15,600 bases of DNA from Nostoc sp. DedSLP01 (GCA_034530875.2 JAVRCJ020000075.1:1-15600), one strand, 5' to 3'; positions 179 to 15,090 are shown, counted from the stretch's first letter. Made by a program: numbers and translations. Notes: generated by a model not told the origin, from the letters alone.

Positions 179-3100
179 TTATTGAGTAGTGCCGATACCA
201 TCGCACAAATGCTTATCATCTTCTGGTATATCTTGGTTATATGTGAGATAGTTTCGTGCCCAATTACAAGCACTATCTAATAGGGGATTTAAAGCCAGAC
301 GGTCTAAGTCCCAAATCAAGACCGTGTTCTTTTGATCGACTCTATAACCCATAACGAATGTAATTAAAGTTTTACCATTGGAACTAAATATTACATCAAC
401 TACCTCTTGTTGATGCTTGATAGTTCGTAATTCCTTACCATTCAAATCCCAAAATTTAACAGTTTTATCTCCACTACCTGAGGCAAGGGTTTTACCATCT
501 GGACTAAAGGCAATAGTATAAATCCATCCTTTATGTCTTTTGAAAGTTCGTAATTCTTTGCCGTTTAAATCCCAGAGTTTAATAGTTTTGTCATTACTGG
601 CAGAGGCAAGGATTTTACCATCTGGGCTGAAAATAATACTAGAGACGCTTCCTTGATGTCCTTTGAGTGTTTGTAGTTCGTTACCATTTTTTAAATCCCA
701 GAGTTTGATTGTATTGTCATTACTGCCAGAGGCGAGGATTTTTCCATCTGGACTGAAGGCAATACTACTGACAAATTTTGTATGCCCTTTGAGTGTTTGC
801 GAGTTGTTGGTATTTAAATCCCAAAGTTTGATAGTTGTTTTATCTGTAGAGGCGAGAGTTTTACCATCTGGACTAAAGACAACACGAGTTATACCTTCTT
901 GACTATCATTTATAATTCGTGGTTTATTGGAATTTAAACTCCAAACTTTAATACTGCTGCTATTTTTACTAGCTTCAGTAGAGGCAAGAGTTTTACTATC
1001 GGGGCTAAAGACCAAACTGTTGATAGATCCAATATTTTCAGGGTTCAAAACAGTGTGTAGCTTTTTGCCATTTAGATCCCGAATTTCAATACTACCACTG
1101 TAGTTACCAGAGGCAAGAGTTTTTCCATCGGGACTCAAAGCAACACTTGTCACATCATCATTTTTATCTGCGGTAAAGGTTTGGAAGTTTGGCGATCGCT
1201 TTTCTTTTGAATCCCAAAGTTTGATAGTATTATCATCACTAGCAGAAGCCAAGCTTTTCCCGTCTGGGCTGAAAGCAACACTTGTCACATATTGGTCATG
1301 TCCTTTAAATATTGCTAATTTTTCACCATTTAAATTCCGAAGTTCAATGGAATTATCCTCAGTAACAATAGCTAGAGTTTTACCATCGGGACTAAAAAAG
1401 ACTTTTGTTGTGTCGCTGTCCATTTTATCCTTTTGAAAGCTCTTGAATTCATTACCGTTTAAATCCCAGAGTTTGAAAGTTTTATCTGTATATGTAGTCA
1501 GCAGAGTTTTACCATTGGGGCTGAAAGTAATACTAGTGATACTTTCCTTATACCCTTTCAAAATGTGCAATTGTTTACCATTTAAATCCCAGAGTTTGAC
1601 AGTATTATCTGTATCAGCAGTCGCTACAGTTTTACTATCAGGACTAAAAACGATATTATTTCCTTCATATTTAATATTTTTGAGTTCCCCACCATTTAAA
1701 TTCCAGAGTTGAACAGTATTATCTTCACCAACAGCCGCCAGAGTTCTCCCATCTGGACTGAAAACAATATTTTTAACTTCTGATTTATTATTAAAGGTTT
1801 TTCGTTCCTGGCCGTTTAAATCCCAGAGTTTGATGGTGTCATCTTCAGTTACAGTCGCCAGAGTTTTACCATCTGGGCTGAAAATCACATCTGTGACCTT
1901 TTGTTGATAGTTGAAAGATTGCAATTGTTTACCATTTAAATCCCAGAGTTTAACAGTTTTGTCATTGCTGGCAGAAGCGAGAATTTTACCGTCTGGGCTG
2001 AAGGCTACGCTATTGACAGAATTATCATGTCCAGTCAAAGTATTAGTCTCTCTGATGCGATCGACTACTTCCTGCAATGCTTCTAATACCAAGGGTTGAG
2101 TAAAGTTTTGCTCTTGTAAAATTTTTCCGGCTTTAATTCCTTGGACTAATGCTTCCAAATCTTGATGATAATCTGAGAGTGATAACGAATACCGACCTAA
2201 AGCCTCAGCTTTAGTTTTTTCAGCTTTTAGTTTCTCACTGAAAGCTAGATTTGCTAAACATGCAGTCACAATCAAAGCAATTAATGCTCCGCCAGCTGTT
2301 GCCCAAGCTATCGTAATTTCTTTACGGCGACGCGCTTCTTTTTCCTTTTGCTGGCGCTGGCGCAGTTCTATGCAAGCAGCAACATAGTCGGCTTCTAACT
2401 GATTTAAAAAATTAGTATGCTTTGCCAACACCTGAGCATCTTCTAATCTTCCACCCCGATGCACCAGATAATTTTCATCTTTTTGCTGCTTTTCCCAATC
2501 TAAAGCTGCCTGACGAATAGTTTCGCGCAATTGTAAATTGATGCGATTCTCATCTAACCACTTGAGCAGACGCGGCCAGTAGCGGATTAAAGCTTCATGT
2601 GCCACTTCCACCTCTTCACGATTTGTAGATTCGTCTACACTCGTCACTACTAATCGCGCACCTTCACCAGCTAACTTTTGCACCAATTGTTTGGTAGTTG
2701 CTAAATCACCACCCGCAGGTATCAGTTCGTCTAACCAAACTCGCCGTCTGGTGTCCCGGCGTCTTTCTCCTTCCAGGGCATTTTCATCTAAGCGGGTTAA
2801 GCGGATAAAGATATTCTTAACTTGGTCTTGTTCTGGTGCTGATAAGGTATTGTAGACATCATCGGCAGTTTGAGCGATCGCCATATTCACACCACCGATC
2901 GCTTCATATTCCACAGCACGCAACCATCTACCATACCGCCGCTTCCACATCTCCAACAATGCATGTTGCAATAGTGGCATTGCTCCCGGTTCGCCTTGCA
3001 CGTCATCCAAAATCGCGTTACTCAAGCCTGCTTCAAAGCGCAAACCCACTTGGGCGGCTTGCATTTCCATCGCTTTCCGCAATTCTGCCGCATCCATCGG

Positions 3101-4936
3101 GCCGATTAATTTTTGTCTCACTTCCATCAAATCTTTTAAATTGCGGTAGCTGGCACACTCACCCCAAAAATCTGCCCGCATGGTGACGATGACTTTTTGG
3201 TGTGGAATTAGGCTTAACAATTTTTCGATGAAAGTTACCCTCTCTGCTTCATCAGCGCATAAGGTAAATAATTCCTCGAATTGGTCGATTACTAATATTG
3301 AAGTTTGCCCTTGCACTGGAGAAAGACTAGTTTGTAGTTTTTCTATGGGGTGAGAGCTTGGCGTCATGTATGCTAACTGCAAATCAGGTTGTTTTTCCTG
3401 TAGCAGCGGTATTAAACCCCCTAAAACTACTGATGATTTACCACTACCAGAAGCGCCTAAGACGGCTAAAAAGTTATGTTCGGTCAACTTTTCTTGCAGT
3501 TGGGCAATTAGTTGTTCGCGCCCAAAGAAAAATTCGCGGTTTTCTACCCGGAAAGGATACAAACCGCGGAAGGGACAACGAGAATCATAATTTGGTAGCT
3601 GTCGATCTAACGCCAAACCATGAAAATTAAAGTCTAATATTTCCTCACAGAGATTATTGACTTCTTCTAATAACTGTTCTCGTTCCTGACGGATTTCTTT
3701 ACTCAATGCTGCAACATCAGCACCTAAAATATTTTCTAGTTTCTGGGCAAGAATCTCAAATTTTTGTTGCAGTGTTGGCGCTCTTTGTGGTAATAATTCC
3801 CGCAGACGTTGTAAACCATATTTAATTTCGGCGTTAGTTAGTTCGCGATCGAGTTGGTCGCTAAATAAGGGTCGTCCACCCAAGCGGCTAAACAATGCCG
3901 GAACTGTCAAATCGCCGCGCTTTGCTAAAGCGGCTGTAGCTTCGTGTAAAGCAGAATCAACTTCTCCGGATGCTCTGAGTTGTTTATAAAAGTTTTCTAT
4001 TAGGGTTTGGGCTGTTTTGATGGTGACTTTATCCGTCATTGCTACCACCGCAGGCATTCCCAAATCCCGGACTAATCTTTGCCCTAAGCCTCCTAAGGAA
4101 CCTTCAGCATCAGGGCTGGCGCTTTCGCAAGTACAAAGAAAGGTAAAATGGGGTAGCCCTTTGGCTCCTCGTAACGGGCGCAACCGGTCTAGTAGTTGTG
4201 TCGCTGGGATGGCATCTACTGTATTATCAGCTTTTGACCAGTAGACAATGGTTTCACCATTATCTGTTACCCTACCGTGACTGACGAAATGTAGTATTGT
4301 ATATTGTTTGTTGCGATCGCTCAGGTGAGTACATAGTTCGTCGATTGTCGGTAAACCAATGGCTCCATCAACTGTTGCTAAGATATCGCAAGGTATTTCT
4401 CCCAGTGCAGACTTGACGCTATGAACGCTTGCTGCAACATCGAAATCGGCTAATTTATACTTTAGGGAATCGCTAGGACTAGCAACTAAAACCAGCGCCC
4501 GCAAATCTCGCCGCCCAATGGGGGGAAAACGGCGGTCAGTAATTGCTGGAATGTAGAAAGAAAATGGTACTCGTTGGTTTAGTGCTAATAACTGCCATTC
4601 ACTATCGATAGGGGCGCAGAGTTTTTCCCAACGCAAGGTTCTTAATTCTGGATCTGATGCTTCAATAAAAAGCAACATTCTCAGTGGTTCTTCACTTTCA
4701 CGCATCGCACCAACAAAGGCATCGCGTAGATCGTCTCGAAATAGGTTTTTTCCCAGCAATGTACCGTAATCTTTGGGCTGTCCGAGAAGGCTGGTTAGCT
4801 GCTGAAAATTTTCAGGAGTTAGTTCGAGAGTACCTTCCGAGCGTAATGGCAGAAGTTCGCCAAATCGGGTGTGTTCTACAACAATTGGCCAGTTATTTTC
4901 TGATTTCCGCTGGATAGTAATCTCGAAGGTGTTCAT
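179..4936 (-). CDS. CHAT (caspase-like) protease - nSTAND1 NTPase - TM helix - 14x WD40 NLR-like receptor (paralog B), 1585 aa
   Basis: ATG at 4936, TAA at 179-181. CHAT dyad motifs LHFVSHG (H220) and FLCTCES (C270). nSTAND1 signatures CPFRGL..F, FFGRE, Walker A GASGSGKSS (K500), Walker B LVIDQFEELFT, MRADF, PGAMPLLQHAL and EVAHEALIRYWPRL. Hydrophobic helix ITIAWATAGGALIALIVTACLANLAF at about 2240-2318. 14 divergent WD40 repeats (FSPDGKTLA...LWDLNG) at about 310-2040. C-terminal ACNW...LCDGI tail. Confidence 0.93.
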   Translation of the reverse strand: MNTFEITIQRKSENNWPIVVEHTRFGELLPLRSEGTLELTPENFQQLTSLLGQPKDYGTLLGKNLFRDDLRDAFVGAMRESEEPLRMLLFIEASDPELRTLRWEKLCAPIDSEWQLLALNQRVPFSFYIPAITDRRFPPIGRRDLRALVLVASPSDSLKYKLADFDVAASVHSVKSALGEIPCDILATVDGAIGLPTIDELCTHLSDRNKQYTILHFVSHGRVTDNGETIVYWSKADNTVDAIPATQLLDRLRPLRGAKGLPHFTFLCTCESASPDAEGSLGGLGQRLVRDLGMPAVVAMTDKVTIKTAQTLIENFYKQLRASGEVDSALHEATAALAKRGDLTVPALFSRLGGRPLFSDQLDRELTNAEIKYGLQRLRELLPQRAPTLQQKFEILAQKLENILGADVAALSKEIRQEREQLLEEVNNLCEEILDFNFHGLALDRQLPNYDSRCPFRGLYPFRVENREFFFGREQLIAQLQEKLTEHNFLAVLGASGSGKSSVVLGGLIPLLQEKQPDLQLAYMTPSSHPIEKLQTSLSPVQGQTSILVIDQFEELFTLCADEAERVTFIEKLLSLIPHQKVIVTMRADFWGECASYRNLKDLMEVRQKLIGPMDAAELRKAMEMQAAQVGLRFEAGLSNAILDDVQGEPGAMPLLQHALLEMWKRRYGRWLRAVEYEAIGGVNMAIAQTADDVYNTLSAPEQDQVKNIFIRLTRLDENALEGERRRDTRRRVWLDELIPAGGDLATTKQLVQKLAGEGARLVVTSVDESTNREEVEVAHEALIRYWPRLLKWLDENRINLQLRETIRQAALDWEKQQKDENYLVHRGGRLEDAQVLAKHTNFLNQLEADYVAACIELRQRQQKEKEARRRKEITIAWATAGGALIALIVTACLANLAFSEKLKAEKTKAEALGRYSLSLSDYHQDLEALVQGIKAGKILQEQNFTQPLVLEALQEVVDRIRETNTLTGHDNSVNSVAFSPDGKILASASNDKTVKLWDLNGKQLQSFNYQQKVTDVIFSPDGKTLATVTEDDTIKLWDLNGQERKTFNNKSEVKNIVFSPDGRTLAAVGEDNTVQLWNLNGGELKNIKYEGNNIVFSPDSKTVATADTDNTVKLWDLNGKQLHILKGYKESITSITFSPNGKTLLTTYTDKTFKLWDLNGNEFKSFQKDKMDSDTTKVFFSPDGKTLAIVTEDNSIELRNLNGEKLAIFKGHDQYVTSVAFSPDGKSLASASDDNTIKLWDSKEKRSPNFQTFTADKNDDVTSVALSPDGKTLASGNYSGSIEIRDLNGKKLHTVLNPENIGSINSLVFSPDSKTLASTEASKNSSSIKVWSLNSNKPRIINDSQEGITRVVFSPDGKTLASTDKTTIKLWDLNTNNSQTLKGHTKFVSSIAFSPDGKILASGSNDNTIKLWDLKNGNELQTLKGHQGSVSSIIFSPDGKILASASNDKTIKLWDLNGKELRTFKRHKGWIYTIAFSPDGKTLASGSGDKTVKFWDLNGKELRTIKHQQEVVDVIFSSNGKTLITFVMGYRVDQKNTVLIWDLDRLALNPLLDSACNWARNYLTYNQDIPEDDKHLCDGIGTTQ

Positions 4937-5008
4937 AAATTATTCTTGAATGCTTTTTAGTGAATGTTCGCGCCTGGTGTAATTTATACTTTCATTCAGC
5001 AACACTGA

Positions 5009-8000
5009 TTAATTTGTGACGATACCATCGCACAAACCCCTATCACTCTCCTCTACATCTCGGTTATTCTTGAGATAATCTCGCACCCAATCGCAAGCCC
5101 TTACCATCAGAGAATCTAGATTCAAATCCCACAAATTGACGGTATATTCCCCGACATTGTTACTTGCAAAAGCGATGGTTTTACCGTCGGGACTGAAGAC
5201 TAAACTAAGGATATAAGATTGATGTTTAAGTGTATACAGTAGCTTGCCGCTTAAATCCCAAAGTTTCACGGTATTGTCAATACTAGCAGAAGCGATGGTT
5301 TTACCGTCAGGACTAAAGACCACACTTGTGACGCCCTGTTTATGCCCGTTGAAAGTTTGCAGTAGCTTGCCCTTTAAATTCCAGAGTTTCAGGGTTTTAT
5401 CATCACTAGCAGAAGCGATGGTTTTACCGTCAGGACTAAAGACAAGGCTAATGACCCCACTTTCATGTCCTGTGAAAGTTTGCAGTAGCTTGCCGTTTAA
5501 ATCCCAGAGTTTCAGGGTTTTATCATCACTAGCAGAAGCGATGGTTTGACCGTCGGGACTAAAGGCCACACTTGTGACGCGCTGTTTATGCCCGTTGAAA
5601 GTTTGCAGTAGCTTGCCTTTTAAATCCCAGAGCTTCACGGTTTTGTCATCACTAGTAGTAGCGATGGTTTTACCGTCAGGACTAAAGAAAAAGCTATTGA
5701 ACCCACTTTCATGTCCTGTAAAAGTTTGCAGTAGCTTACCCTTTAAATTCCAAAGTTTCACAGTTTTGTCTCTATTAGTAGTAGCGATGGTTTGACCGTC
5801 GGTACTAAAGACCATACTTACGGCGCTCTGTTTATCGTTGAAAGTTTGCAGTAGCTTGCCCTTTAAATCCCAGAGTTTCAGGGTTTCATCAGAACTAGCA
5901 GAAGCGATAGTTTGGCCGTCGGGACTAAAGACCACTTTTGTGACTATATCGTTATGTCCTTTGAAAGTTTGCAATTGCTTATTGTTTAAATCCCAGATTT
6001 TAAGGGTTTTATCAGAACTAGCAAAAACGATGGTTTTACCGTCGGGACTAAAAACCACACTATTGACCATATTGTTATTTCCTTTGAACGTTTGCAGTAG
6101 CTTACCGTTTAAATCCCAGATTTTAACGGTTTTGTCAGCACTAGCAGAAGCGATGGTTTTACCGTCGGGACTAAAGACAACGCTTGTGGTCAAAAGTTCA
6201 TTTCCTGTCAAAGTTTGCAGTAGCTTGCCGTTTAAATCCCAGATTTTAAGGGTTTTGTCAGCACTAGCAGAAACGATGGTTTTACCGTTAGGACTAAAGA
6301 CAACACTATCGACCCTATCGTTATGTCCTGTGAAGGTTTGCAGCAACTTGCCGTTTAAATCCCAGAGTTTCACGGTTTTGTCAGCACTAGCAGAAGCGAT
6401 GGTTTTACAGTCGGGACTAAAGACAACGCTTGTGATGAAAAGTTCATGTCCTGTCAAAGTTTGCAGTAGTTTACCGTTTAAATCCCAGATTTTCACAGTT
6501 TTGTCAGCACTAGCAGAAGCGATGGTTTTACCGTTAGGACTAAAGACAACACTATCGACCCCACTTTCATTTCCTGTGAAAGTATGTAGTAAGTTGCTGT
6601 TTAAATCCCAGAGTTTCACGGTTTGGTCATAACTAGCAGAAGCAATGGTTTTACCGTCGGGACTAAAGACCACACTATAGACCCCACTTTCATGTCCTGT
6701 AAAAGTTTGCAGTAGCTTGCCGTTTAAATCCCAGAGTTTCACGATTTTGTCATCACTAGCAGAAGCGATGGTTTTACCGTTGGGACTAAAAACCACACTA
6801 TTGACCCCACTTTCATGTCCTGTAAAAGTTTGCAGTAGTTTGCCGTTTAAATCCCAAAGTTTTACGGTTTTGTCATCATTAGCAGAAGCGATGGTTTTAC
6901 CGTTGGGACTAAAAACCACACTATTGAACCCATTATCATCTGCAAGAATATTGCGCTCTTTTACCCCATAAACTGATTTTCGCAAAGCTTGGATAGCTAA
7001 AACTAGGGGGCGACTTAGGGACTGGGTAACTTTTTGTTCTTTGAGGATTTTTCCAGCTTTAATTCCTTCTATAAGTGCATCCAATTCTTGATGGGAATCA
7101 AACAGTACCGAAGAAGATTGACTTATAGCCTCAGCTTTAGTTATTTCCGCTTCTTGCTTTTGTTTTTCCGCTTCTCCCTTTTGATGCAAAGCCACTAACC
7201 CGAAAGCAGCACTAATAATGACAGCAACAACTGCTCCCCCTGCTACTCCCCAAGCTGTTCTAATTTCCCGACGGCGATGCGCTTCTTTTTCTTGTTCTTG
7301 ACGCAGGCGCAATTCCCAACAAGCATTTACGTAGTTCGCCTCAAGTTGGTTGAGAAATCCGGCTTGTTTGGCTAACACCTGAGCATCATCTAATCTCCCG
7401 CCACGATGCACCAAATAATTATCATCTTTTTGTTGATTTTCCCATTCCAAAGCTGCCTGACGGATAGTTTCCCGTAGCTGCAAATCAGCCCGGTTTTCAT
7501 CTAACCAATTCAGCAACCGAGGCCAGTAGCGAATTAACGCTTCATGTGCCACCTCGACTTCTTCTCGATTCGTAGACTCGTCTACATTGGTAACTACCAA
7601 TCGCGCCCCTTCTCCGGCTAAACGATTGACTAATTCCTTAATCAGTGCTATGTTTCCACCCGCAGGTATGAGTTCATCTAACCAAACCCGTCGCCGTGTA
7701 TCCCGGCGTTTCTCTCCCTGTAGAGCAGTGTCATCTAAGCGGGTTAAACGAATGAAAATATTTTTAACTTGGTCTTGTTCTGGTGCTGATAAGGTATTGT
7801 AAACATCATCGGCAGTTTGAGCGATCGCCATATTCACACCACCGATCGCTTCATATTCCCCAGCACGCAACCATCTGCCATGTCGCCGCTTCCACATCTC
7901 CAACAATGCATGTTGCAACAGTGGCATTGCTCCTGGCTCACCTTGCACATCATCTAAAATCGAGTTGCTCAAACCTGGTTCAAAGCGTAAACCCACTTGG

Positions 8001-9883
8001 GCGGCTTGCATTTCCATCGCTTTCCGCAATTCTGCTGCATTCATCGGGCCGATTAATTTTTGCCTAGCTTCCATCAAATCTTTCAGATTGGGGTAGATAG
8101 CACACTCACCCCAAAAATCTGCCCGCATGGTAATTACAATTTTTTGGTGTGGAATCAGGCTTAACAATTTTTCGATGAAAGTTACCCTTTCTGCTTCATC
8201 AGCGCACAGAGTAAATAATTCCTCAAATTGGTCGATTACTAATATTGAAGATTGCCCTTGCACCTGGGAAAGACTAGTTTGCAGTTTTTCTATGGGGTGA
8301 GAGCTTGGCGTCATGTATGCTAACTGCAAATCGGCTTGTTTTTCCTGTAGCAGAGGTAGTAAACCCCCCAACACTACCGATGATTTACCACTACCAGAAG
8401 CGCCTAAGACGGCTAAAAAGTTGTGTTCGGTCAGCTTTTGTTGCAGTTGGGCAATTAGTTGTTCTCGCCCAAAGAAAAATTCGCGGTTTTCCACCCGGAA
8501 TGGATACAAGCCACGGAAGGGACATCGAGAATCATACGCGGGTGGAAGGCGATCGAATGCCAAAGCATGGAAGTTGAGGTCGAATATTTCCTCACAGAGA
8601 TTGTTAATCTCTTCTAAAGCCTGTTCTCGTTCTTTGAGGCTTGATTTGCTCAAAGCTGTAACATCTGCCTCTAGTGTGTTTCCTAGTTGCTGTGCTATCT
8701 GTGCGAACTTCTTTTCTAGAATAGGCGATCGCTCTGGCAGCAACTCTAAAATCCGCGTCAAACCATGTTGAATTTCAGCGTTGGTCAATTCTCGGTCAAG
8801 CTGGTCGCTAAATAAGGGTCGTCCCCCCAAACGGCTAAAAAGTGCTGGTACAGTCACATCACCACGTTCTGCTAAAGCGGCTGTAGCCTCATGTAAAGCT
8901 GAATCCACCTCTCCCGACTGTCTGAGTTGTTGGTAAAATTTCTCTGCTAGTGCCTGAGCCGTTTTAATAGTCACTTTTTCGGTCATCGCTATCACCGCAG
9001 GCATACCCAAATCCCGCACCAATCGCTGTCCTAATCCCCCTAATCCGGCTTCGGCGTCTGGGCTGGCGCTTTCACAAGTGCAGAGAAAAGTAAAGTGCGG
9101 TAAACCTCTAGCTCCCCGTAACACGCGCACTCTTTCCAGTAACCTTGTTGCTGTCACTACCTCCACTGTGTTATCAGCTTTTGACCAGTAGAGCAGGGTT
9201 TCCCCATCATCCCTGACCCTACCGTGGCTAACAAAATGTAGTATTGTATACTGTTTTGTTCTATCGGTTAGCTGAGTGCAAAGTTCGTCAAGAGTAGGTA
9301 AACCGATAGCACCATCAACTGTTGCCAGGACATCACAAGGGATATCTCCCAACGCCGATCGCACACTTTTAACAGTAGTTTCTACGTCAAAATTGTCTAA
9401 TTTATACCTTTGTGAATCTGAAGGACTCGCCACCAGCACCAGCGCCCGTAAATCTCGCCGCCCTATGGCAGGAAAAAGTCGGTCAGTAATGGCAGGTATA
9501 TAAAAGGAAAAAGGCACCCGTTGATTGATGGCTAACATCTGCCAATCTCCATCAATGGGAGCGCATAACCTTTCCCAGCGTAAAGTTCTGAGTTCTTTGT
9601 CTGCGGCTTCTATAAATAGCAACACCCGCAGGGTTTCTTGAGTATGACTGAGTGCCCTGACAAATCCATCACGCACGTCGTCGCGTAACAGCGCTTTCCC
9701 CAAAAACGTACCGTAATCCCGTACTTGTCCTGAAATACCGATCAAATGCTGCAAATCTTCATCGGTTAGCCGGAAATTACCTTCCGATCGCAACGGCAAA
9801 AGGACACCTGCTTGGCTGTGTTCCACTACAATTGGCCAGCTATTTCCTGATTTGCGTTGGATGGTAATCTCGAAGGTGTTCAT
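5009..9883 (-). CDS. CHAT protease - nSTAND1 NTPase - TM helix - 15x WD40 NLR-like receptor (paralog A), 1624 aa
   Basis: ATG at 9883, TAA at 5009-5011. Same motifs as the neighbouring paralog at a constant offset of 4947 nt (SHG, LCTCES, GASGSGKSS, DQFEELFT). TM segment TAWGVAGGAVVAVIISAAFGLVAL at about 7190-7260. 15 highly similar WD40 repeats. C-terminal ACDW...LCDGI tail. Confidence 0.93.
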   Translation of the reverse strand: MNTFEITIQRKSGNSWPIVVEHSQAGVLLPLRSEGNFRLTDEDLQHLIGISGQVRDYGTFLGKALLRDDVRDGFVRALSHTQETLRVLLFIEAADKELRTLRWERLCAPIDGDWQMLAINQRVPFSFYIPAITDRLFPAIGRRDLRALVLVASPSDSQRYKLDNFDVETTVKSVRSALGDIPCDVLATVDGAIGLPTLDELCTQLTDRTKQYTILHFVSHGRVRDDGETLLYWSKADNTVEVVTATRLLERVRVLRGARGLPHFTFLCTCESASPDAEAGLGGLGQRLVRDLGMPAVIAMTEKVTIKTAQALAEKFYQQLRQSGEVDSALHEATAALAERGDVTVPALFSRLGGRPLFSDQLDRELTNAEIQHGLTRILELLPERSPILEKKFAQIAQQLGNTLEADVTALSKSSLKEREQALEEINNLCEEIFDLNFHALAFDRLPPAYDSRCPFRGLYPFRVENREFFFGREQLIAQLQQKLTEHNFLAVLGASGSGKSSVVLGGLLPLLQEKQADLQLAYMTPSSHPIEKLQTSLSQVQGQSSILVIDQFEELFTLCADEAERVTFIEKLLSLIPHQKIVITMRADFWGECAIYPNLKDLMEARQKLIGPMNAAELRKAMEMQAAQVGLRFEPGLSNSILDDVQGEPGAMPLLQHALLEMWKRRHGRWLRAGEYEAIGGVNMAIAQTADDVYNTLSAPEQDQVKNIFIRLTRLDDTALQGEKRRDTRRRVWLDELIPAGGNIALIKELVNRLAGEGARLVVTNVDESTNREEVEVAHEALIRYWPRLLNWLDENRADLQLRETIRQAALEWENQQKDDNYLVHRGGRLDDAQVLAKQAGFLNQLEANYVNACWELRLRQEQEKEAHRRREIRTAWGVAGGAVVAVIISAAFGLVALHQKGEAEKQKQEAEITKAEAISQSSSVLFDSHQELDALIEGIKAGKILKEQKVTQSLSRPLVLAIQALRKSVYGVKERNILADDNGFNSVVFSPNGKTIASANDDKTVKLWDLNGKLLQTFTGHESGVNSVVFSPNGKTIASASDDKIVKLWDLNGKLLQTFTGHESGVYSVVFSPDGKTIASASYDQTVKLWDLNSNLLHTFTGNESGVDSVVFSPNGKTIASASADKTVKIWDLNGKLLQTLTGHELFITSVVFSPDCKTIASASADKTVKLWDLNGKLLQTFTGHNDRVDSVVFSPNGKTIVSASADKTLKIWDLNGKLLQTLTGNELLTTSVVFSPDGKTIASASADKTVKIWDLNGKLLQTFKGNNNMVNSVVFSPDGKTIVFASSDKTLKIWDLNNKQLQTFKGHNDIVTKVVFSPDGQTIASASSDETLKLWDLKGKLLQTFNDKQSAVSMVFSTDGQTIATTNRDKTVKLWNLKGKLLQTFTGHESGFNSFFFSPDGKTIATTSDDKTVKLWDLKGKLLQTFNGHKQRVTSVAFSPDGQTIASASDDKTLKLWDLNGKLLQTFTGHESGVISLVFSPDGKTIASASDDKTLKLWNLKGKLLQTFNGHKQGVTSVVFSPDGKTIASASIDNTVKLWDLSGKLLYTLKHQSYILSLVFSPDGKTIAFASNNVGEYTVNLWDLNLDSLMVRACDWVRDYLKNNRDVEESDRGLCDGIVTN
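5120..6950 (-). repeat. Intragenic tandem array of about 123-bp (41-aa) WD40 units, 15 copies
   Basis: The marker aaat(c/t)cca (WD/WN codons) recurs at 5124, 5253, 5376, 5499, 5622, 5745, 5865, 5988, 6111, 6234, 6357, 6480, 6603, 6726 and 6849. The period is 123 nt except one 120-nt unit and a 129-nt terminal unit. Confidence 0.95.
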
Positions 9884-9884
9884 G

Positions 9885-10025
9885 ATTGGGGAGTGGGGAG
9901 TGGAGAAGTGTGGGAGGTGTGGGAGGAGAGGGAGGAGAGGGAGGTGTGGGAGGAAGAAGTATAAATTCTCTTTCTCCTCACACTTCCCACACTACCTGCT
10001 TGCCCAATGCCCCCTGCCCTATGCT
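9885..10025. repeat. STRR-type composite intergenic repeat: heptamers plus a 9-mer array with an imperfect inverted copy
   Basis: ATTGGGG/AGTGGGG/AGTGGAG heptamers, then GGGAGG(TGT/AGA) 9-mers with GGG at 9912, 9921, 9930, 9939 and 9948. An imperfect reverse complement TCTCCTCACACTTCCCACACT lies at 9973-9993, followed by TGCCCAA/TGCCCCC/TGCCCTA/TGCTCTA heptamers. Such repeats are typical of heterocystous cyanobacteria. Confidence 0.8.
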
Positions 10026-11723
10026 CTAGCTCAGTTTCTTCAAGGTTTCTAGGAGACTAACTGTGGCTGAAAGTGCTGCTTGCAGCTTTTGGGTACGGTC
10101 AGTTGAAGCTTGGTCAACTGTTTTGGCAAATTGTTCTAGTGCTTGGTTGAGGTTTGTCTGGGCTTGTTGGATTGCAGATGTGTTAGATGGTTGTGGTGTT
10201 GTGGGTGCAGTGGGTAAATTTATTGATGCGATAACAGCGCGATCGCCTGTGGAATTATCGCTCACAACTAGGCGAACTGCGGGATCGCCAATAATGGCAT
10301 AACTGCGGGCGTCGTTGTTTGCTGTCCACATATCAGACAAATTCATCGGATCGGCGATCGCGCCATATTTAACTTCTTCTAATTCGGTACTCAAATCAGA
10401 TGAAAGTTCGGCGTAACGCTCGTTGAAATATTCAACAGCTGACCCCACAGGATGACCTTCTAACAGTCTCTTGAGAGTACTTTGAAAAACTGCCAATTGT
10501 TTGGTAGATTTTTTGCTATTGGTTCCCCACATAAAAGAGCAACCCCAAGCCCGTTCTACGTGGCCGATGACAGCTAAAGCACCACCATTGGGATGACTCA
10601 ATAGACGGCGGGGTAGAGGAGCAACAAAGGCATTAGGAGCGATTTGTAATCTTTCATTGGAGCCTTTTCTATGAGCAAACTCATCAAATCGAGGCGTACC
10701 GGCACCATAACAAGCAAAGTGAAAGGCAATTAGCCCTAGTAACCGAGCATCATCGCCAACATCGTCCGCAGAGAAGTAAAAATCTTCGGGAATTGGTTTA
10801 TTACCCCACTCTCTGTGACCAGGCCAGTCCTGACAGAGTAAAGCACCTTGATGGCGTAGTTGTCGTTCATCTCCATTGGGAAAGCCCATACCATGACTGG
10901 CAGTGAACAGCAAAGCAGGTGTTTCTTCACCACCTAATAGTTTCGCTAACTGCGCCTTTGTAGCTTCTTCTGCAAGTAAGGTTCGTACTGCCCAACTATT
11001 ATCTTTTTGGTCGTCAAGCATCCACTCAGCTAAGGGCTGAATCAAGTTCTCAGCACTGAGTTCAGTGGCTTTATCACCCTTGGTATTCACACCAAAAAAG
11101 CTAGCTTTACGAGCCAGGTTTAAATTGGTAGTTTCAGCCTGTACGACGCTGCGAGCATACTGAGCATATTCTTGGGGCGTATCAAAGTAGATCCGACCTA
11201 CAGCATACTGAACATCAAGTTGGTACTGGAAGCGATAAGGAATCGTTTCTGGATCGCCAACAATCAATAGATAATAAGGCATTTTATCTGGGTCAGCAGG
11301 CCCAGGGCCAACTCCATGACGCGACAAAAATTGATTCTTTGATTCCCCTGGACGATAGATATATTCCTTATAATAATTTTCGTTATTTTTCGTAGCTTGT
11401 TTTTGTCGATGCTCTAACAGTTCCTTGAGTGCTTCCTTGATTACTTCCTTGATTGCTGGGTTGTCATTATAAGCAAAGATAACTCCCCAACCTGTCTCTG
11501 CAAGGTTTTTAGGATCTACTCCTTCTATGGGCGCAAAGTCGGGTTCTAAACCTTTAACATGCAAATCCTTTCTCTTGAGTTCGCTGATTTCTATAGGATC
11601 GAACTCTTCGCCCTGAGCAATTTTAGAAACCTGTTCGGGTGTCAACGGAGGCAACAAATACTCTCCTGATGCACCATCAATTCCATTGAAATATAGCTCT
11701 TGTGTCAGTTGTTCTATACTCAT
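10026..11723 (-). CDS. Clan CD (caspase-fold) cysteine protease, peptidase C25/gingipain-like, with N-terminal extension and C-terminal helical tail, about 565 aa
   Basis: C25-like motifs [26 protein letters not shown] (H277), FHFACYGAG (C338), GGALAVIGH and terminal [12 protein letters not shown] at 11723 is preferred over the ORF-track TTG at 11732 because an AGAAGGA Shine-Dalgarno-like sequence lies about 10 nt upstream of it. No signal peptide is evident. Confidence 0.8.
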
Positions 11724-11765
11724 CTTACGCAATCCTTCTATTTCTAATTTGATGAAAATGTTTAA

Positions 11766-13160
11766 TTAATTACCAAACGCTGCCGACCATACAGCATGAG
11801 CTACTTCAGGATTGTCAAAGGCATTGTGAGCGCCTATGAATTGATCCAATAAGCTAGGAGGAACCACAATATAATCATTGCTGTTCAGGTTGTAAATTTT
11901 ACCTGATTCAAAGTTGTAAGATTTGTCCGAGGAGTGCATATATGTTATGTCGCTGCTAATATTCAAACCATCACCTTGGATTCCATAACAACCAACGCCA
12001 CCGACACCAGGGTAACTTGAGGTATCAATGTCAAAGTTTATATCTTGACCGCCAAGTATTCCCAGCGTTCCCGCCATAGGATAGGCATTCTTGACAGCCT
12101 TATCATACTTAGATTGAGTAGTAACAATTGGCCCTGCAACTTTCTTATCGGTAATAACAGACCGGAAGTAACCGGGAAGATTGTTTCTATGAGGGACATT
12201 TGCACAGAAAGACCAGAGTGATAAAGCGCCTTGGATTAAGACAAGAGAATTAACGGGACGGAGTAATGGTTTATTTTTACCTGCTACGGTGGCGGAGACA
12301 AGAATACATCCAAAGCTGTGTCCCATCAGATGAAATCGCACGCTATTATCTGTTACCTGTTGAAGTCTATTCAACAAATTGAAGCCGCTGGTTTCACCAA
12401 TTTTCTTAGCTAGGTCTTTCATTTTCCAGAAAGATAACAATCTCGGAATATTCAAAAATGCATCAGCAGCCGATTTCACACTTGTCTCAATTCCGAAGCT
12501 GACATCTTCTTCATCTTCTGCAAGAGTAGCTTGATATAGACTTTCAGGATCTAAATTTAATGATTCGTTTTCGCTCCAATCATCTTCTCCTTCATTAGTC
12601 GAAGATGCTTCCTTAATCAAAACCTCGCAGGCTGCACGTACCTCAGTTGGTAATGTCTCGGGTGCAACATCATATTCTGCTGCTGCTGTAAAAATTATTC
12701 TGAGGGCATCTCTGGCAGCTTCAGTATCAGCAATGCTCTGGGAATACTGATTAATTAACTCTTCCTGAGCATCATCTGTAGCCTCAAAAGACACAATTGT
12801 TTTGTTTGGAGTGACTTGACTTAAGTCTTCATTTCCCCAAGGCTTACTAGGCCAATGCAGACCAATTAACAACGGGTTAAATCCTGGGCGCAACTGTTGC
12901 ATTTTTTCAATATCAGCTCGGTTTTTACCCATAGCTTTAATCCATCTGTCATACTGATCTTTTGCCGCAGTAACGTCACCTTGCCATCCGTGGCTCATCA
13001 AGAAAACATCTGTGATTGGCTTTTTGGATTGCCTAGATTTAGATAAAGTATCTATTATTTTTTCGCTGATTAGTTCTCCATTATTTGTACGCTCTTTGCC
13101 ATTAGCATCAAAAGCTATTAAATAGTAGGCTAAAGAAGTTAGGGCTAATGTTTCTGACAT
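11766..13160 (-). CDS. Alpha/beta-hydrolase fold serine hydrolase (lipase/esterase-like) with large acidic insertion, about 464 aa
   Basis: Oxyanion motif FLMSHGWQG, LHWPS, nucleophile elbow HLMGHSFG (S282), candidate Asp in SKYDKAV (D353) and candidate His in GAHN (H445). ATG at 13160 is preceded by TAGAAGGATTTTTT (SD-like), so the ORF-track start at 13226 is probably 22 codons too long. Confidence 0.85.
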   Translation of the reverse strand: MSETLALTSLAYYLIAFDANGKERTNNGELISEKIIDTLSKSRQSKKPITDVFLMSHGWQGDVTAAKDQYDRWIKAMGKNRADIEKMQQLRPGFNPLLIGLHWPSKPWGNEDLSQVTPNKTIVSFEATDDAQEELINQYSQSIADTEAARDALRIIFTAAAEYDVAPETLPTEVRAACEVLIKEASSTNEGEDDWSENESLNLDPESLYQATLAEDEEDVSFGIETSVKSAADAFLNIPRLLSFWKMKDLAKKIGETSGFNLLNRLQQVTDNSVRFHLMGHSFGCILVSATVAGKNKPLLRPVNSLVLIQGALSLWSFCANVPHRNNLPGYFRSVITDKKVAGPIVTTQSKYDKAVKNAYPMAGTLGILGGQDINFDIDTSSYPGVGGVGCYGIQGDGLNISSDITYMHSSDKSYNFESGKIYNLNSNDYIVVPPSLLDQFIGAHNAFDNPEVAHAVWSAAFGN

Positions 13161-13236
13161 AAAAAATCCTTCTAAATCAGGTTGAGATTGATTCAAAGAA
13201 CGAGGAAAACTGCTGTAATTACACAAAAATGTTGGC

Positions 13237-13254
13237 TGCTGTTATTTAACAGCA
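13237..13254. promoter_or_regulatory. Perfect 8-2-8 inverted repeat TGCTGTTA-TT-TAACAGCA, candidate operator upstream of the four-gene operon
   Basis: Seen directly, 77 nt upstream of the hydrolase ATG. A related TGCTGTAATTACA lies at 13211-13223. The regulator is unknown. Confidence 0.35.
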
Positions 13255-13429
13255 CCCGTATTTTTTGCCTAAAGTTACTTTGGCAAGTATTTCGTCAACA
13301 AATCTTTTTGGATATACAGTAAGGTGACGAACTTCTAGTGTTTTTGCAACTCTTGACACTTTGGATAGGTCTACAGTTCGATCGCCATTAGTCTGTTCTG
13401 GCGTAATTTTACACAGTAATTATGTAAGA

Positions 13430-13527
13430 TATAGCAGGAGGCAGAAGGCAGGAGGCAGGAGGGAAAGTCTTACTATTCCCAGCATTCAAGCTTTGAAAAT
13501 GTCCTAACATATCTGGCTACAGCTATA
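13430..13527. repeat. Small MITE-like/dispersed repeat with TATAGC...GCTATA ends and an internal GCAG(G/A)AG x4 heptamer array
   Basis: TATAGC at 13430-13435 and GCTATA at 13522-13527. Heptamers GCAGGAG-GCAGAAG-GCAGGAG-GCAGGAG at 13434-13461. The right end TGTCCTAAC...TGGC...GCTATA resembles Nostocales dispersed repeats (from recall, not searched). Confidence 0.5.
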
Positions 13528-13916
13528 GTTAACGCCAAAAACCGCTAAAAACTCTGGCTGCGTGACCGGTCATATCAAGTCCAGTGAAAGACTTATCATC
13601 AGGGCTGATGCAGTGGACGCTCTAGCGCACAAAAATTTTAATAATAAGTGACGAGCTGGTTTTGAGATCGAGAGTTTTTATCTTTATACTACCTAGAAGT
13701 TTTCGTATTACTGGTTACAGAATAACTTTATGCCTTGCAAGCTACCTGAGTAATAATACTGAGTTTAAACGGAATTTTACTTAAAAATATATTAAAAAAA
13801 ATAATTTTATATCAGTACTGTAGCGCAGAAAAAATTAAAGTTTGAGTAGCATCTATAACGGTGAGATATCAAAATATGGTGTTGCATCTATGGCTGAAAA
13901 TAACCATCAATAGACA

Positions 13917-13943
13917 TAGAGACGTAGCAATGCTACGTCTCTA
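13917..13943. repeat. GTAG-family REP-like palindrome, possible mRNA 3' stabiliser or terminator of the chelatase gene
   Basis: TAGAGACGTAGCA-A-TGCTACGTCTCTA(C) has perfect 13-bp arms and lies 25 nt downstream of the chelatase stop codon. Confidence 0.75.
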
Positions 13944-13968
13944 CAAAGGTTTTGGGTAACGCTAAAAC

Positions 13969-15090
13969 TTAATGGTGATGATGGTGGTGATGGTGATGGT
14001 CGGCTAGTTGGGGATTAACTGCCACAGCTTGCTCTGACAATAATTGTGCAATATGAGCATCAGCCCATTGAGCTGCGATCGCTAAAAATTCTGGATGGTC
14101 GTTAACGCAAGCCATTTGTACGTAGTTTGTACCGGGATGCCGTTTTTCCAAAGCATGGATGATATGGTGTACATCCAACAGAGTTTCGTGGTTTTCGGTA
14201 ACAAAGCCTATCGGCATAAATACCACTACCTTTGCACCCAGCTGAACCAAATTGCTTGCTGCTTGCTGTGCATTTGGCTGCGTCCATTCAATCAAAGGCG
14301 TATCGTGATTGAGCCAACCCACGGAGATTAAAGGATAGCGGTTAATCAGCTTATCCCGTACTAAATCGTATAGCGCCTGACTTTCGGTAATTCCAGAAGT
14401 AAACCCTTTGGCTTTGTGGGGACAGCCGTGATTCATCAGCACAATACCGATTTGAGAAGGTAGGTAAGCTGCTGCTAAATCAGCATTAATTTTCTCCTCA
14501 ACTAAATGAGCCATCAAATCAATGTAGGCTGGTTCGTTAAAGAAAGAAGGAATATAGCGCTGTCCTTTCACCCAGTGTTCTTCACCATCAGCCAACTCAG
14601 CAAGAGCATTGTTAACTTGCTCGATCGCAATCCCGCTGGTAAAGATAGAATCAACAACTAGCAGTGGATAAATTAGTAACTTATCAAAGCCTTGATTTTT
14701 GATTTCTGCTAAGACTTGTTTGGGTAAAAAAGGCGCGCAGAAGTTGAAAGCTTTAAAAACTTGAACGTTGTTACCCCATTTTTCTTGTAAATGCTTCTCA
14801 ATGCCAGCACGCTGCTGTTCAAAGATGGCATTGTGTGGAGAGATAAAATCGTGGTGTGTGTGTCCCCACTCATGGCGGTCAAATACTGCCAAAACTTTTG
14901 CCAGGGGGGGATACATCCAGGTTGGTACTGGTGCAAACTTTGCAGTAAGTAAATTTAAAGCTTGTTCGTTATAGTTGGCGAAATCTTCGTAGCTTTCGAC
15001 TTCGCCGTAGCCCATCAGCAATACGGCTACACGGTCTTTGGCTGATAATGGCTCGTGGGTAGCGTGGACTTTTTCCGGCGTTGCAACCAC
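13969..15090 (-). CDS. hemH: Ferrochelatase (HemH)-family class II chelatase with C-terminal His9 tail, 373 aa
   Basis: GTG start with GAGGA SD. Motifs AVLLMGYGE (cf. VLLxNxGxP), LLIYPL, LMNHGCP (catalytic His, cf. FSAHGLP), EWTQP (cf. WLxP), PIGFVTENHETLLDV (cf. PISFVSEHIETLxE) and CVNDHPEF (cf. LNxxPxF). It lacks the C-terminal CAB helix of canonical cyanobacterial HemH, so it is probably a second paralog and the gene symbol is family-level only. Confidence 0.8.
   Translation of the reverse strand: MVATPEKVHATHEPLSAKDRVAVLLMGYGEVESYEDFANYNEQALNLLTAKFAPVPTWMYPPLAKVLAVFDRHEWGHTHHDFISPHNAIFEQQRAGIEKHLQEKWGNNVQVFKAFNFCAPFLPKQVLAEIKNQGFDKLLIYPLLVVDSIFTSGIAIEQVNNALAELADGEEHWVKGQRYIPSFFNEPAYIDLMAHLVEEKINADLAAAYLPSQIGIVLMNHGCPHKAKGFTSGITESQALYDLVRDKLINRYPLISVGWLNHDTPLIEWTQPNAQQAASNLVQLGAKVVVFMPIGFVTENHETLLDVHHIIHALEKRHPGTNYVQMACVNDHPEFLAIAAQWADAHIAQLLSEQAVAVNPQLADHHHHHHHHH

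Follow-up and report, generated by a model that had tools for sequence, protein, structure and literature searches.

A candidate protease-gated module of Nostoc sp. DedSLP01 built from CHAT-STAND sensors, a gingipain-fold protease and an alpha/beta-hydrolase

A contig of 15,600 bases from Nostoc sp. DedSLP01 (GCA_034530875.2, JAVRCJ020000075.1; genome of 8.57 Mb) was analysed over its entire length, and this whole stretch is called the window in what follows. Four neighbouring genes on its minus strand encode an alpha/beta-hydrolase (HYD), a protease related to Peptidase_C25 (C25) and two paralogous STAND ATPases (STAND-A and STAND-B), in which a CHAT protease domain and an nSTAND1 ATPase domain precede WD40 repeats. 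Comparison of gene neighbourhoods and of domain fusions strongly supports that the four genes constitute one conserved functional unit, and the system is real and without a name. The reading preferred here is that of a protease-gated module for cell death or defence, made up of three types of component, and a probability of about one half is assigned to it; we infer its biological role, in death or defence.

In the mechanism proposed, a ligand outside the cytoplasm would bind the WD40 domain, and ATP-dependent oligomerisation on the inner side would then activate CHAT, in keeping with the established behaviour of STAND and CHAT proteins. CHAT would in turn switch on C25 by cleavage or by recruitment, a step that is inference only and is drawn by analogy with the SAVED-CHAT/PCaspase system. 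HYD, to all appearance a latent effector under proteolytic control, would be kept inactive by a helical insert of about 97 residues until active C25 cut it after F125 and F222 and thereby removed the insert. From the N- and C-terminal pieces an active enzyme would result that kills or arrests the cell, plausibly via membrane lipids. A complete two-tier cascade, in which a transmembrane, NLR-like STAND protein with hypervariable WD40 repeats would sense a periplasmic or cell-surface signal and act through a CHAT initiator on an executioner of gingipain fold and unusual Phe-P1 (Ser-Phe) specificity, is put forward tentatively, as possible and rather doubtful in so specific a form; the executioner would process zymogens and polyproteins, namely HYD here and nuclease/trypsin/PLD polyproteins in relatives. 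A sequence-only reading of the same DNA had already proposed a four-gene cascade; from that proposal, the single conserved unit and the hydrolase that appears latent and gated by proteolysis have stood, and the Apaf-1-like picture of the sensors has not.

Of 200 further genomes sampled from the same order, nine carried C25 and eight HYD, and the seven strong HYD matches came from seven of the nine C25 genomes, each of them directly beside C25; in a same-family sample, none of ten genomes had C25 or HYD. A scan of species representatives yielded 444 C25 loci, and the best 80 of these, from cyanobacteria, Chloroflexota, Acidobacteriota, Desulfobacterota, Latescibacterota and a Beggiatoa relative, were used for the neighbourhood counts. 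As the loci were classified with purpose-built hidden Markov models (HMMs) tuned to one subfamily, the counts are lower bounds; at locus L019, for instance, a CHAT gene beside C25 was found by Pfam and missed by the HMM. Of the 80 loci, 48 had HYD no more than 1.5 kb from C25, 22 had a different partner and 10 had neither. In the 31 HYD loci that could be evaluated, having at least 5 kb of flank on both sides, a CHAT gene was present in 28 and an nSTAND1 gene in 30; the STAND gene was cut by the contig end at L058 and L067, and there was none at L035. In 28 loci the STAND gene had the same orientation and lay downstream, and in nine it was convergent; adjacency is therefore kept in the latter although co-transcription is impossible there. 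The CHAT domains neighbouring C25 belong to one subclade, 48-90% identical to that of the window. The check on recurrence that had been suggested from the sequence thus gave a positive answer, with homologs of C25 and of the hydrolase recurring beside CHAT-nSTAND1 across phyla and in fusions.

The trio of component types is carried by a Nostoc plasmid, where the annotation pipeline PGAP names the products 'hypothetical protein', 'C25 family cysteine peptidase' and, twice, 'CHAT domain-containing protein', and it is also present on a conjugative Sinorhizobium plasmid. In Pseudomonadota, HYD was detected with this profile in one of 400 other genomes sampled, and that genome has the trio. Some of its loci are plasmid-borne or adjoin transposases, and the module is read as horizontally mobile.

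The same partners also occur within single chains. A profile search with HYD retrieved 2576 representatives at E ≤ 1e-3, and among the best 150 of these 29 were at least 560 aa long; HYD was joined to C25 in 11 of the 29, in both orders, and to CHAT in six, and non-specific endonuclease, trypsin or PLD domains were joined in other long chains. The HYD-CHAT fusions (P0151, P0154, P0160, P0173, P0184 and P0187) measure about 1050-1130 aa and have Leu-Leu-Gly-type loops. Among 120 listed of 335 long C25-family proteins, 43 contained HYD, five were C25-CHAT chains and eight combined nSTAND1 with C25, three of the latter including CHAT as well. Precomputed Pfam labels of long C25 proteins comprised S8 subtilase, endonuclease, lipase families, SIR2, TIR, TPR and WD40, and by these architectures the C25-like domain is a recurrent hub in systems of apparent conflict type. 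Some of the fusion chains may be miscalled, yet their number is large and both orders are represented.

HYD matched no Pfam, NCBIfam or PADLOC family, and the automatic names of HYD-like protein clusters from Actinomycetota offered DUF900 in 14% of one cluster only. A structure model was obtained with a predicted local distance difference test (pLDDT) value of 74 and a predicted template modelling (pTM) score of 0.81. Foldseek against the PDB gave no match at E ≤ 1e-3, and the fold was settled instead by a wide structural search of the PDB, in which 333 representatives matched at Z ≥ 8 and the model was identified as an alpha/beta-hydrolase. The nearest solved folds were lipase- or phospholipase-like, with Nir2 DDHD first (Z 13.9), followed by RavL, venom PLA1, TesA and Tle3; from the model, HYD is plausibly a lipase/esterase-like enzyme that acts on membrane lipids. 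The candidate serine hydrolase triad perceived in the sequence, S282/D353/H445, showed no variation across 49 homologs, and nor did H57-G58-W59 or the remainder of G280-H-S282-F-G284. The predicted helical insert (residues 129-217) follows the oxyanion strand region, precedes the nucleophile and is bounded by two loops of low pLDDT, 109-127 and 217-227.

Two side observations concern this hydrolase. At L027, L028 and L030, C25 is 80-84% identical to that of the window and HYD only 52-53% (about 75-82% elsewhere), which suggests that the hydrolase gene was exchanged between module lineages. In addition, a distant HYD homolog with 31% identity (L116:9481-12420, genome G199) is encoded directly downstream of a Peptidase_S8 subtilase, so that the hydrolase family pairs with a third protease class too.

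Both loops that bound the insert carry the same short motif, V-S-F-[D/E] or V-S-F-[G/S], and these were taken as candidate cleavage sites 1 and 2. Within the C25-linked HYDs, S124 of site 1 was kept in 46/48 and F125 in 45/48 (plus two Tyr), whereas at site 2 V220 and S221 were each kept in 42/48 and F222 in 46/48 (plus two Tyr). The Sinorhizobium ortholog retains the S-F motif and the Pseudomonadota ortholog Phe alone. The distribution of S-[FY] was also followed in 22 of 37 C25...HYD chains, those of about 1700 aa with the order C25-Trypsin-Endonuclease-HYD. It was present in the linker after C25 in 22/22 chains (shuffle expectation 40%) and in the nuclease-HYD linker in 20/22 (19%), and it was depleted in the trypsin domain (3/22; 47%), the trypsin-nuclease linker (5/22; 40%) and the nuclease domain (2/22; 46%). 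These C25-Trypsin_2-Endonuclease_NS-HYD chains (P0122, P0288, P0295 and 19 more) look like self-processing toxin precursors.

The loop motif differs with the protease to which the hydrolase is attached. In HYD domains fused to C25, [STA][FY] was found at site 1 in 45/51 and at site 2 in 42/51, whereas those fused to CHAT had it in 0/5 at both sites and carried an [LV][LV]G-type (Leu-Leu-Gly-type) motif in 4/5 at each; the distant homolog paired with a subtilase has yet other loop sequences. Because the motif changes with the partner protease, C25 rather than CHAT is the likeliest cutter of the hydrolase, as had been supposed before. That C25 cuts the HYD of the window twice, after Phe, is suggestive rather than conclusive on this evidence, and the motifs point to Phe as its P1 preference. 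A complex prediction of C25 (residues 64-500) with HYD scored 0.00 without controls and counts neither for nor against binding.

The two proteases could instead act in parallel, CHAT cleaving HYD and perhaps C25, and C25 being an independent effector that degrades cell proteins broadly. HYD-CHAT fusions without C25 (6/29 long HYD representatives) favour such an arrangement, as do the existence of caspase-like defence proteases without a dedicated effector (Evans et al., 2025; bioRxiv 10.1101/2025.11.14.688446) and the broad specificity of PCaspase (Steens et al., 2023; bioRxiv 10.1101/2023.06.23.546230), both as described in the available portions of these preprints. However, the HYD of the window has S-F at both sites, a motif that accompanies C25 at the frequencies given above and is absent from all five CHAT-fused domains, and HYD is tied more tightly to C25, by the 42-nt gap and by many fusions, than it is to CHAT. 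Parallel action is held to be unlikely.

The assignment of C25 itself is based on Pfam Peptidase_C25 (PF01364; score 30.5 bits, cut-off 23, E 2.9e-7), with only profile positions 288-374, the C-terminal part, aligned; NCBI names the orthologs 'C25 family cysteine peptidase', NCBIfam and PADLOC returned nothing for C25, and no relative was found in the phage collection. The model (pLDDT 87.5) has the two-subdomain gingipain fold of clan CD, and gingipains K (Kgp) and R (RgpB) were the best Foldseek matches (E 6e-9 to 1e-7, template modelling score 0.39-0.50), followed by separase, Craspase CHAT and SAVED-CHAT. The His/Cys dyad read earlier as intact, H277/C338, proved invariant in 37 diverse homologs. 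C25 further has a conserved N-terminal domain of 58 aa and a C-terminal helical hairpin. No 19-residue segment with a mean hydropathy of at least 1.8, and thus by this measure no signal-peptide-like segment, was found anywhere in the protein, nor were further Pfam domains or a match to PF00656 (Peptidase_C14); with no hydrophobic segment and no other Pfam domain, C25 is probably cytoplasmic.

Activation of C25 need not involve a cut. It could be recruited uncleaved to the oligomerised sensor and be activated by induced proximity or by pairing with CHAT, like caspase-9 on the apoptosome, with CHAT having another substrate. This would agree with the C25-CHAT (5) and nSTAND1-C25 or CHAT-nSTAND1-C25 (8) chains among the 120 listed, with the two-subdomain gingipain/separase/CHAT fold that C25 and CHAT have in common, and with the flexible segments of C25, in which a conserved cleavage motif was not found. 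On the other side, no adaptor domain common to C25 and the sensors was detected by eye or with Pfam, and the CHAT dyad is intact in 48 homologs, which argues that CHAT cleaves something. Such uncleaved activation is regarded as rather improbable. For cleavage by CHAT, as in the preferred reading, a possible site is the conserved 'LLGG' loop of C25 (residues 262-265), which is similar to the LLG motif seen in hydrolases paired with CHAT; it is a lead only, because the tripeptide is common and the region is confidently folded.

A second C25 arrangement was noted in the 22 loci with a different partner (L041:9998-16713; L042, L043, L047, L048, L051, L066, L069, L072, L077, L078, L080, L081, L087, L088, L092 and L094-L099). 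There, C25 has 637-751 aa and ends in an extension domain of about 110 aa, and downstream open reading frames (ORFs) of about 270 aa, often also of about 110 aa, carry this C-terminal domain and have no Pfam match. The sensor is CHAT-nSTAND1-CHASE2 in the cyanobacterial cases, and other neighbours include metallophosphoesterase, patatin, LCAT-like lipase, C14 caspase and CHAT-SIR2 proteins. The small ORFs recall 'Pepco'-type protease-associated proteins, to which they may be analogous; a protein-cluster search gave no name for the small 'DS' protein.

Both sensors were matched by Pfam CHAT (PF12770; E 5e-19 and 5e-16 for the two proteins), nSTAND1 (PF20703; 1e-111 and 9e-109) and WD40 (6.5e-180 and 1.5e-124). 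Conservation in 48 STAND homologs is 97% or more for the catalytic and nucleotide-binding residues described earlier as intact: the CHAT dyad H220/C270, K500 of Walker A and D551 of Walker B. With the PADLOC-DB v2 HMMs, zero families were found for C25 and HYD, and the sensors had weak or WD40-driven matches only, among them a weak SAVED_CHAT match via the CHAT part (E 3.8e-5); NCBIfam gave a weak HetF similarity. STAND-A and STAND-B are 91% identical in nSTAND1, 79% in CHAT and 50% in the WD40 region. The WD40 domain of STAND-A consists of about 15 near-identical repeats of 41 residues that vary at few positions, a pattern typical of a diversifying recognition surface. As an observation apart, the nSTAND1 regions of the paralogs (window 7421-8521 vs. 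2474-3574) are 91% identical, and up to 93% at the level of nucleotides, compared to 50-79% for the flanking parts; this likeness points to gene conversion or to strong constraint acting on the ATPase.

Between nSTAND1 and WD40, both sensors contain a hydrophobic helix that the sequence-only reading, which likened them to Apaf-1, had overlooked. A single such helix follows nSTAND1 at about 60 residues and precedes WD40 in 48/55 homologs, and in sister loci the WD40 repeats are replaced by CHASE2, an extracytoplasmic sensor domain, with further membrane helices. As the ATPase must be cytoplasmic and the helix follows it, WD40 is probably outside the cytoplasm; the sensors are probably transmembrane proteins of outside-in type with WD40 facing the periplasm, and the soluble, Apaf-1-like model was given up. 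A Cys pair at the C-terminus after WD40 (21/36 with a strict pattern) was considered as a periplasmic disulfide and dropped, as similar tails occur in possibly cytoplasmic forms. C25 and HYD each occur once in the genome of the window, which has three close paralogs of CHAT-nSTAND1 type; the third of these, a CHAT-nSTAND1-WD40 protein of about 1985 aa encoded on a different contig with no C25 or HYD nearby (G000:C2:202069-208044; L117:7067-13018, minus strand), may feed the single C25/HYD pair.

Sensor domains that probably face outwards would also suit a role unrelated to phages, such as envelope stress, developmental cell death or kin recognition in filaments, with a periplasmic WD40 domain sensing self or neighbour. 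CHAT proteins such as HetF reportedly act in cyanobacterial division and development, and the weak NCBIfam HetF similarity points the same way, as does the enrichment of filamentous cyanobacteria and Chloroflexota among the best 80 loci. Against this stand the patchy distribution (9/200 genomes of the order and 0/10 of the family sample), the plasmid carriage and adjacent transposases, the tandem sensors with diverged WD40 regions, and the fusion of relatives to nucleases, PLD, SIR2 and TIR, traits typical of conflict systems, and little credence is given to a non-phage role. That HYD-C25 and CHAT-STAND are unrelated and merely share one defence island is scarcely credible: defence genes do cluster and some C25 loci have no nearby CHAT, but nSTAND1 accompanies nearly every evaluable locus, in several phyla and in both orientations, the neighbouring CHAT is of one subclade, and single chains with C25, CHAT and nSTAND1 exist.

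Several observations weigh against the preferred reading of a protease-gated module. No CHAT was found within 10 kb of C25 at L035, L049, L081, L087, L096, L097 and L018, and the six HYD-CHAT fusions are direct pairings of HYD with a CHAT-type protease, so that CHAT may be the one to cut HYD in the window. The group of CHAT fusions from which the alternative motif was read is small (n = 5), the motif groups are made of related sequences, and many fusion chains are metagenomic gene calls, with miscalled fusions possible. At the sequence level, gene and domain association is the sole support for the step from CHAT to C25. The C25 of Sinorhizobium lacks the N-terminal 62 residues, and with them the 58-residue domain, which makes a universal N-terminal prodomain unlikely. 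The periplasmic placement of WD40 is deduced from one hydrophobic segment, and the lipase-like view of HYD from fold similarity alone, its substrate side being predicted.

The arrangement, not recognised before as a named system, has precedents for its parts in three sources, each cited here for its available portions. Kaur et al. (2020; eLife, PMC7159879) were the first to point out the pairing; in their systems a caspase-superfamily domain always occurs with a neighbouring alpha/beta-hydrolase gene and two caspase-like domains can accompany the hydrolase. Double cleavage of a hydrolase zymogen was demonstrated experimentally for LcCaspase-LcHydrolase by Evans et al. (2025), who also present 'transmembrane STAND ATPases' as sensors of another module. 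In the system of Steens et al. (2023), oligomerised SAVED-CHAT cleaves and activates a second protease.

As far as the available portion of Evans et al. (2025) goes, the LcCaspase-LcHydrolase module and that of the window share a clan CD protease beside an alpha/beta-hydrolase with a triad, in conserved pairing, two like motifs around a middle segment of the hydrolase, associated STAND or beta-propeller sensors, and a proposed logic in which two cuts, at candidate sites in the present case, would remove an inhibitory fragment and free a toxic enzyme. The two hydrolases, compared by description only, differ in size, with about 300 aa estimated from fragment sizes for LcHydrolase vs. 464 aa for HYD, and in motif, Arg-Gly vs. 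V-S-F-[DEG]. LcCaspase is a compact caspase domain fused to its sensor, whereas C25 is a separate gingipain-fold protein of 565 aa (Cys338), and the sensors of the window carry a second protease of their own, CHAT; fused C25-sensor forms occur in relatives.

With SAVED-CHAT/PCaspase of type III-B CRISPR-CBASS, in the portion of Steens et al. (2023) at hand, the locus has in common two clan CD proteases, one sensor-linked CHAT that is activated by oligomerisation and one free downstream protease. SAVED binds cyclic nucleotides, whereas the window has STAND-WD40 proteins that are probably membrane-anchored and in which no SAVED match was found; the second protease is of the Peptidase_C14 family vs. 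C25-like here; and its targets are a sigma factor and inhibitor vs. the hydrolase proposed here. The CHAT-nSTAND1 and transmembrane STAND conflict systems that Kaur et al. (2020, 2021) treat in multicellular bacteria likewise combine CHAT, nSTAND1 and a repeat sensor, with diversifying repeats and enrichment in filamentous bacteria; C25 with this hydrolase in a triad of genes, and the S-F motif, are not described in the parts of these papers that were covered.

The gingipains RgpB and Kgp of Porphyromonas are the best structural match of C25, with the His/Cys dyad and the Pfam score above cut-off in common, and about 12% sequence identity. Gingipains are secreted enzymes that possess a signal peptide as well as Ig-like or C-terminal sorting domains. 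They serve secreted virulence proteolysis, whereas C25 is probably cytoplasmic and is found in the context of conflict systems, and they have Arg or Lys at P1 vs. the Phe suggested for C25 by the motifs. The window departs from known systems in that its protease stands alone and has the gingipain fold, its hydrolase is larger and has Ser-Phe motifs, and its STAND proteins, probably transmembrane, carry CHAT. In the literature, searched with partial coverage, no earlier description of a C25-CHAT-hydrolase system was found.

If the model is true, a second natural initiator-executioner protease cascade would exist, here on a STAND (NLR-like) platform, bringing the analogy with apoptosome and inflammasome closer. 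A large family of gingipain-fold proteases would be a modular hub, represented by the 444 loci and by hundreds of fused chains with nucleases, lipases, proteases and sensors, and under the two-tier reading the C25-like domain would be a widespread licensing hub of bacterial cell-death systems. Ligand-binding repeats outside the cytoplasm would imply that threats are detected at the envelope and not inside the cell, and the predicted Ser-Phe recognition motif of the C25 family would be directly testable. Since both the double cutting of a hydrolase zymogen and cascades driven by CHAT have been published before, the concept is not new and the surprise is limited.

Table 1. Features of the window, with positions counted from its first base; residue numbers refer to the encoded proteins.
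Feature	Position	Strand	Remarks
STAND-B	179..4936	minus	1585 aa; paralog of STAND-A, divergent WD40 region
STAND-B divergent WD40 region	approx. 302-2047	minus	
STAND-B membrane helix	residues 876-894 = 2255-2311	minus	hydropathy
STAND-A	5009..9883	minus	1624 aa; CHAT-nSTAND1-membrane helix-WD40
STAND-A WD40, about 15 regular 41-aa repeats	approx. 5132-6991	minus	
STAND-A membrane helix	residues 880-898 = 7190-7246	minus	hydropathy
STAND-A nSTAND1	residues 455-821	minus	K500, D551
STAND-A CHAT	residues 59-340	minus	dyad H220/C270
C25/STAND-A spacer	9884..10025	minus	142 nt; G-rich arm and C/U-rich arm, long imperfect hairpin
C25-like protease	10026..11723	minus	565 aa, stand-alone; ATG start, TTG 9 nt upstream
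C25 dyad H277 / C338	10893-10895 / 10710-10712	minus	invariant in 37 sequences
HYD	11766..13160	minus	464 aa, ATG start; alpha/beta-hydrolase without family name
HYD candidate triad S282/D353/H445 and oxyanion motif H57-G58-W59	within 11766..13160	minus	conservation, 49 sequences
HYD site 2, V220-S221-F222-G223	12492..12503	minus	candidate cleavage motif, low-pLDDT loop 217-227
HYD site 1, V123-S124-F125-E126	12783..12794	minus	candidate cleavage motif, low-pLDDT loop 109-127
Ferrochelatase/CbiX-like gene	13969..15090	minus	outside module

As shown in Table 1, the window has five genes, all on the minus strand and in the order ferrochelatase/CbiX-like gene, HYD, C25, STAND-A and STAND-B. The ORF coordinates bore out the four co-oriented genes and the gaps of 42, 142 and 72 nt that had been read from the sequence. 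An Rfam scan of the window gave no match, and a scan for promoters and terminators gave sites no commoner than in shuffled sequences, with no terminator in the minus-strand intergenic gaps. The ferrochelatase/CbiX-like gene ends in nine histidines and is probably a metal chelatase unrelated to the module. Between it and HYD, the roughly 800 nt at 13161-13968 have a low G+C content and no ORF of 50 aa or more, and their nucleotide identity to the corresponding stretch of nine Nostoc loci (L020-L026, L029 and L033) is 72-78%; this region may be a long leader or a regulatory region. The C25/STAND-A spacer contains one 14-mer that is repeated twice, and it folds with a minimum free energy of -50.3 kcal/mol (z -2.65; 2 of 200 shuffles as stable); it could act in attenuation or as a processing site, or be a small repeat element.

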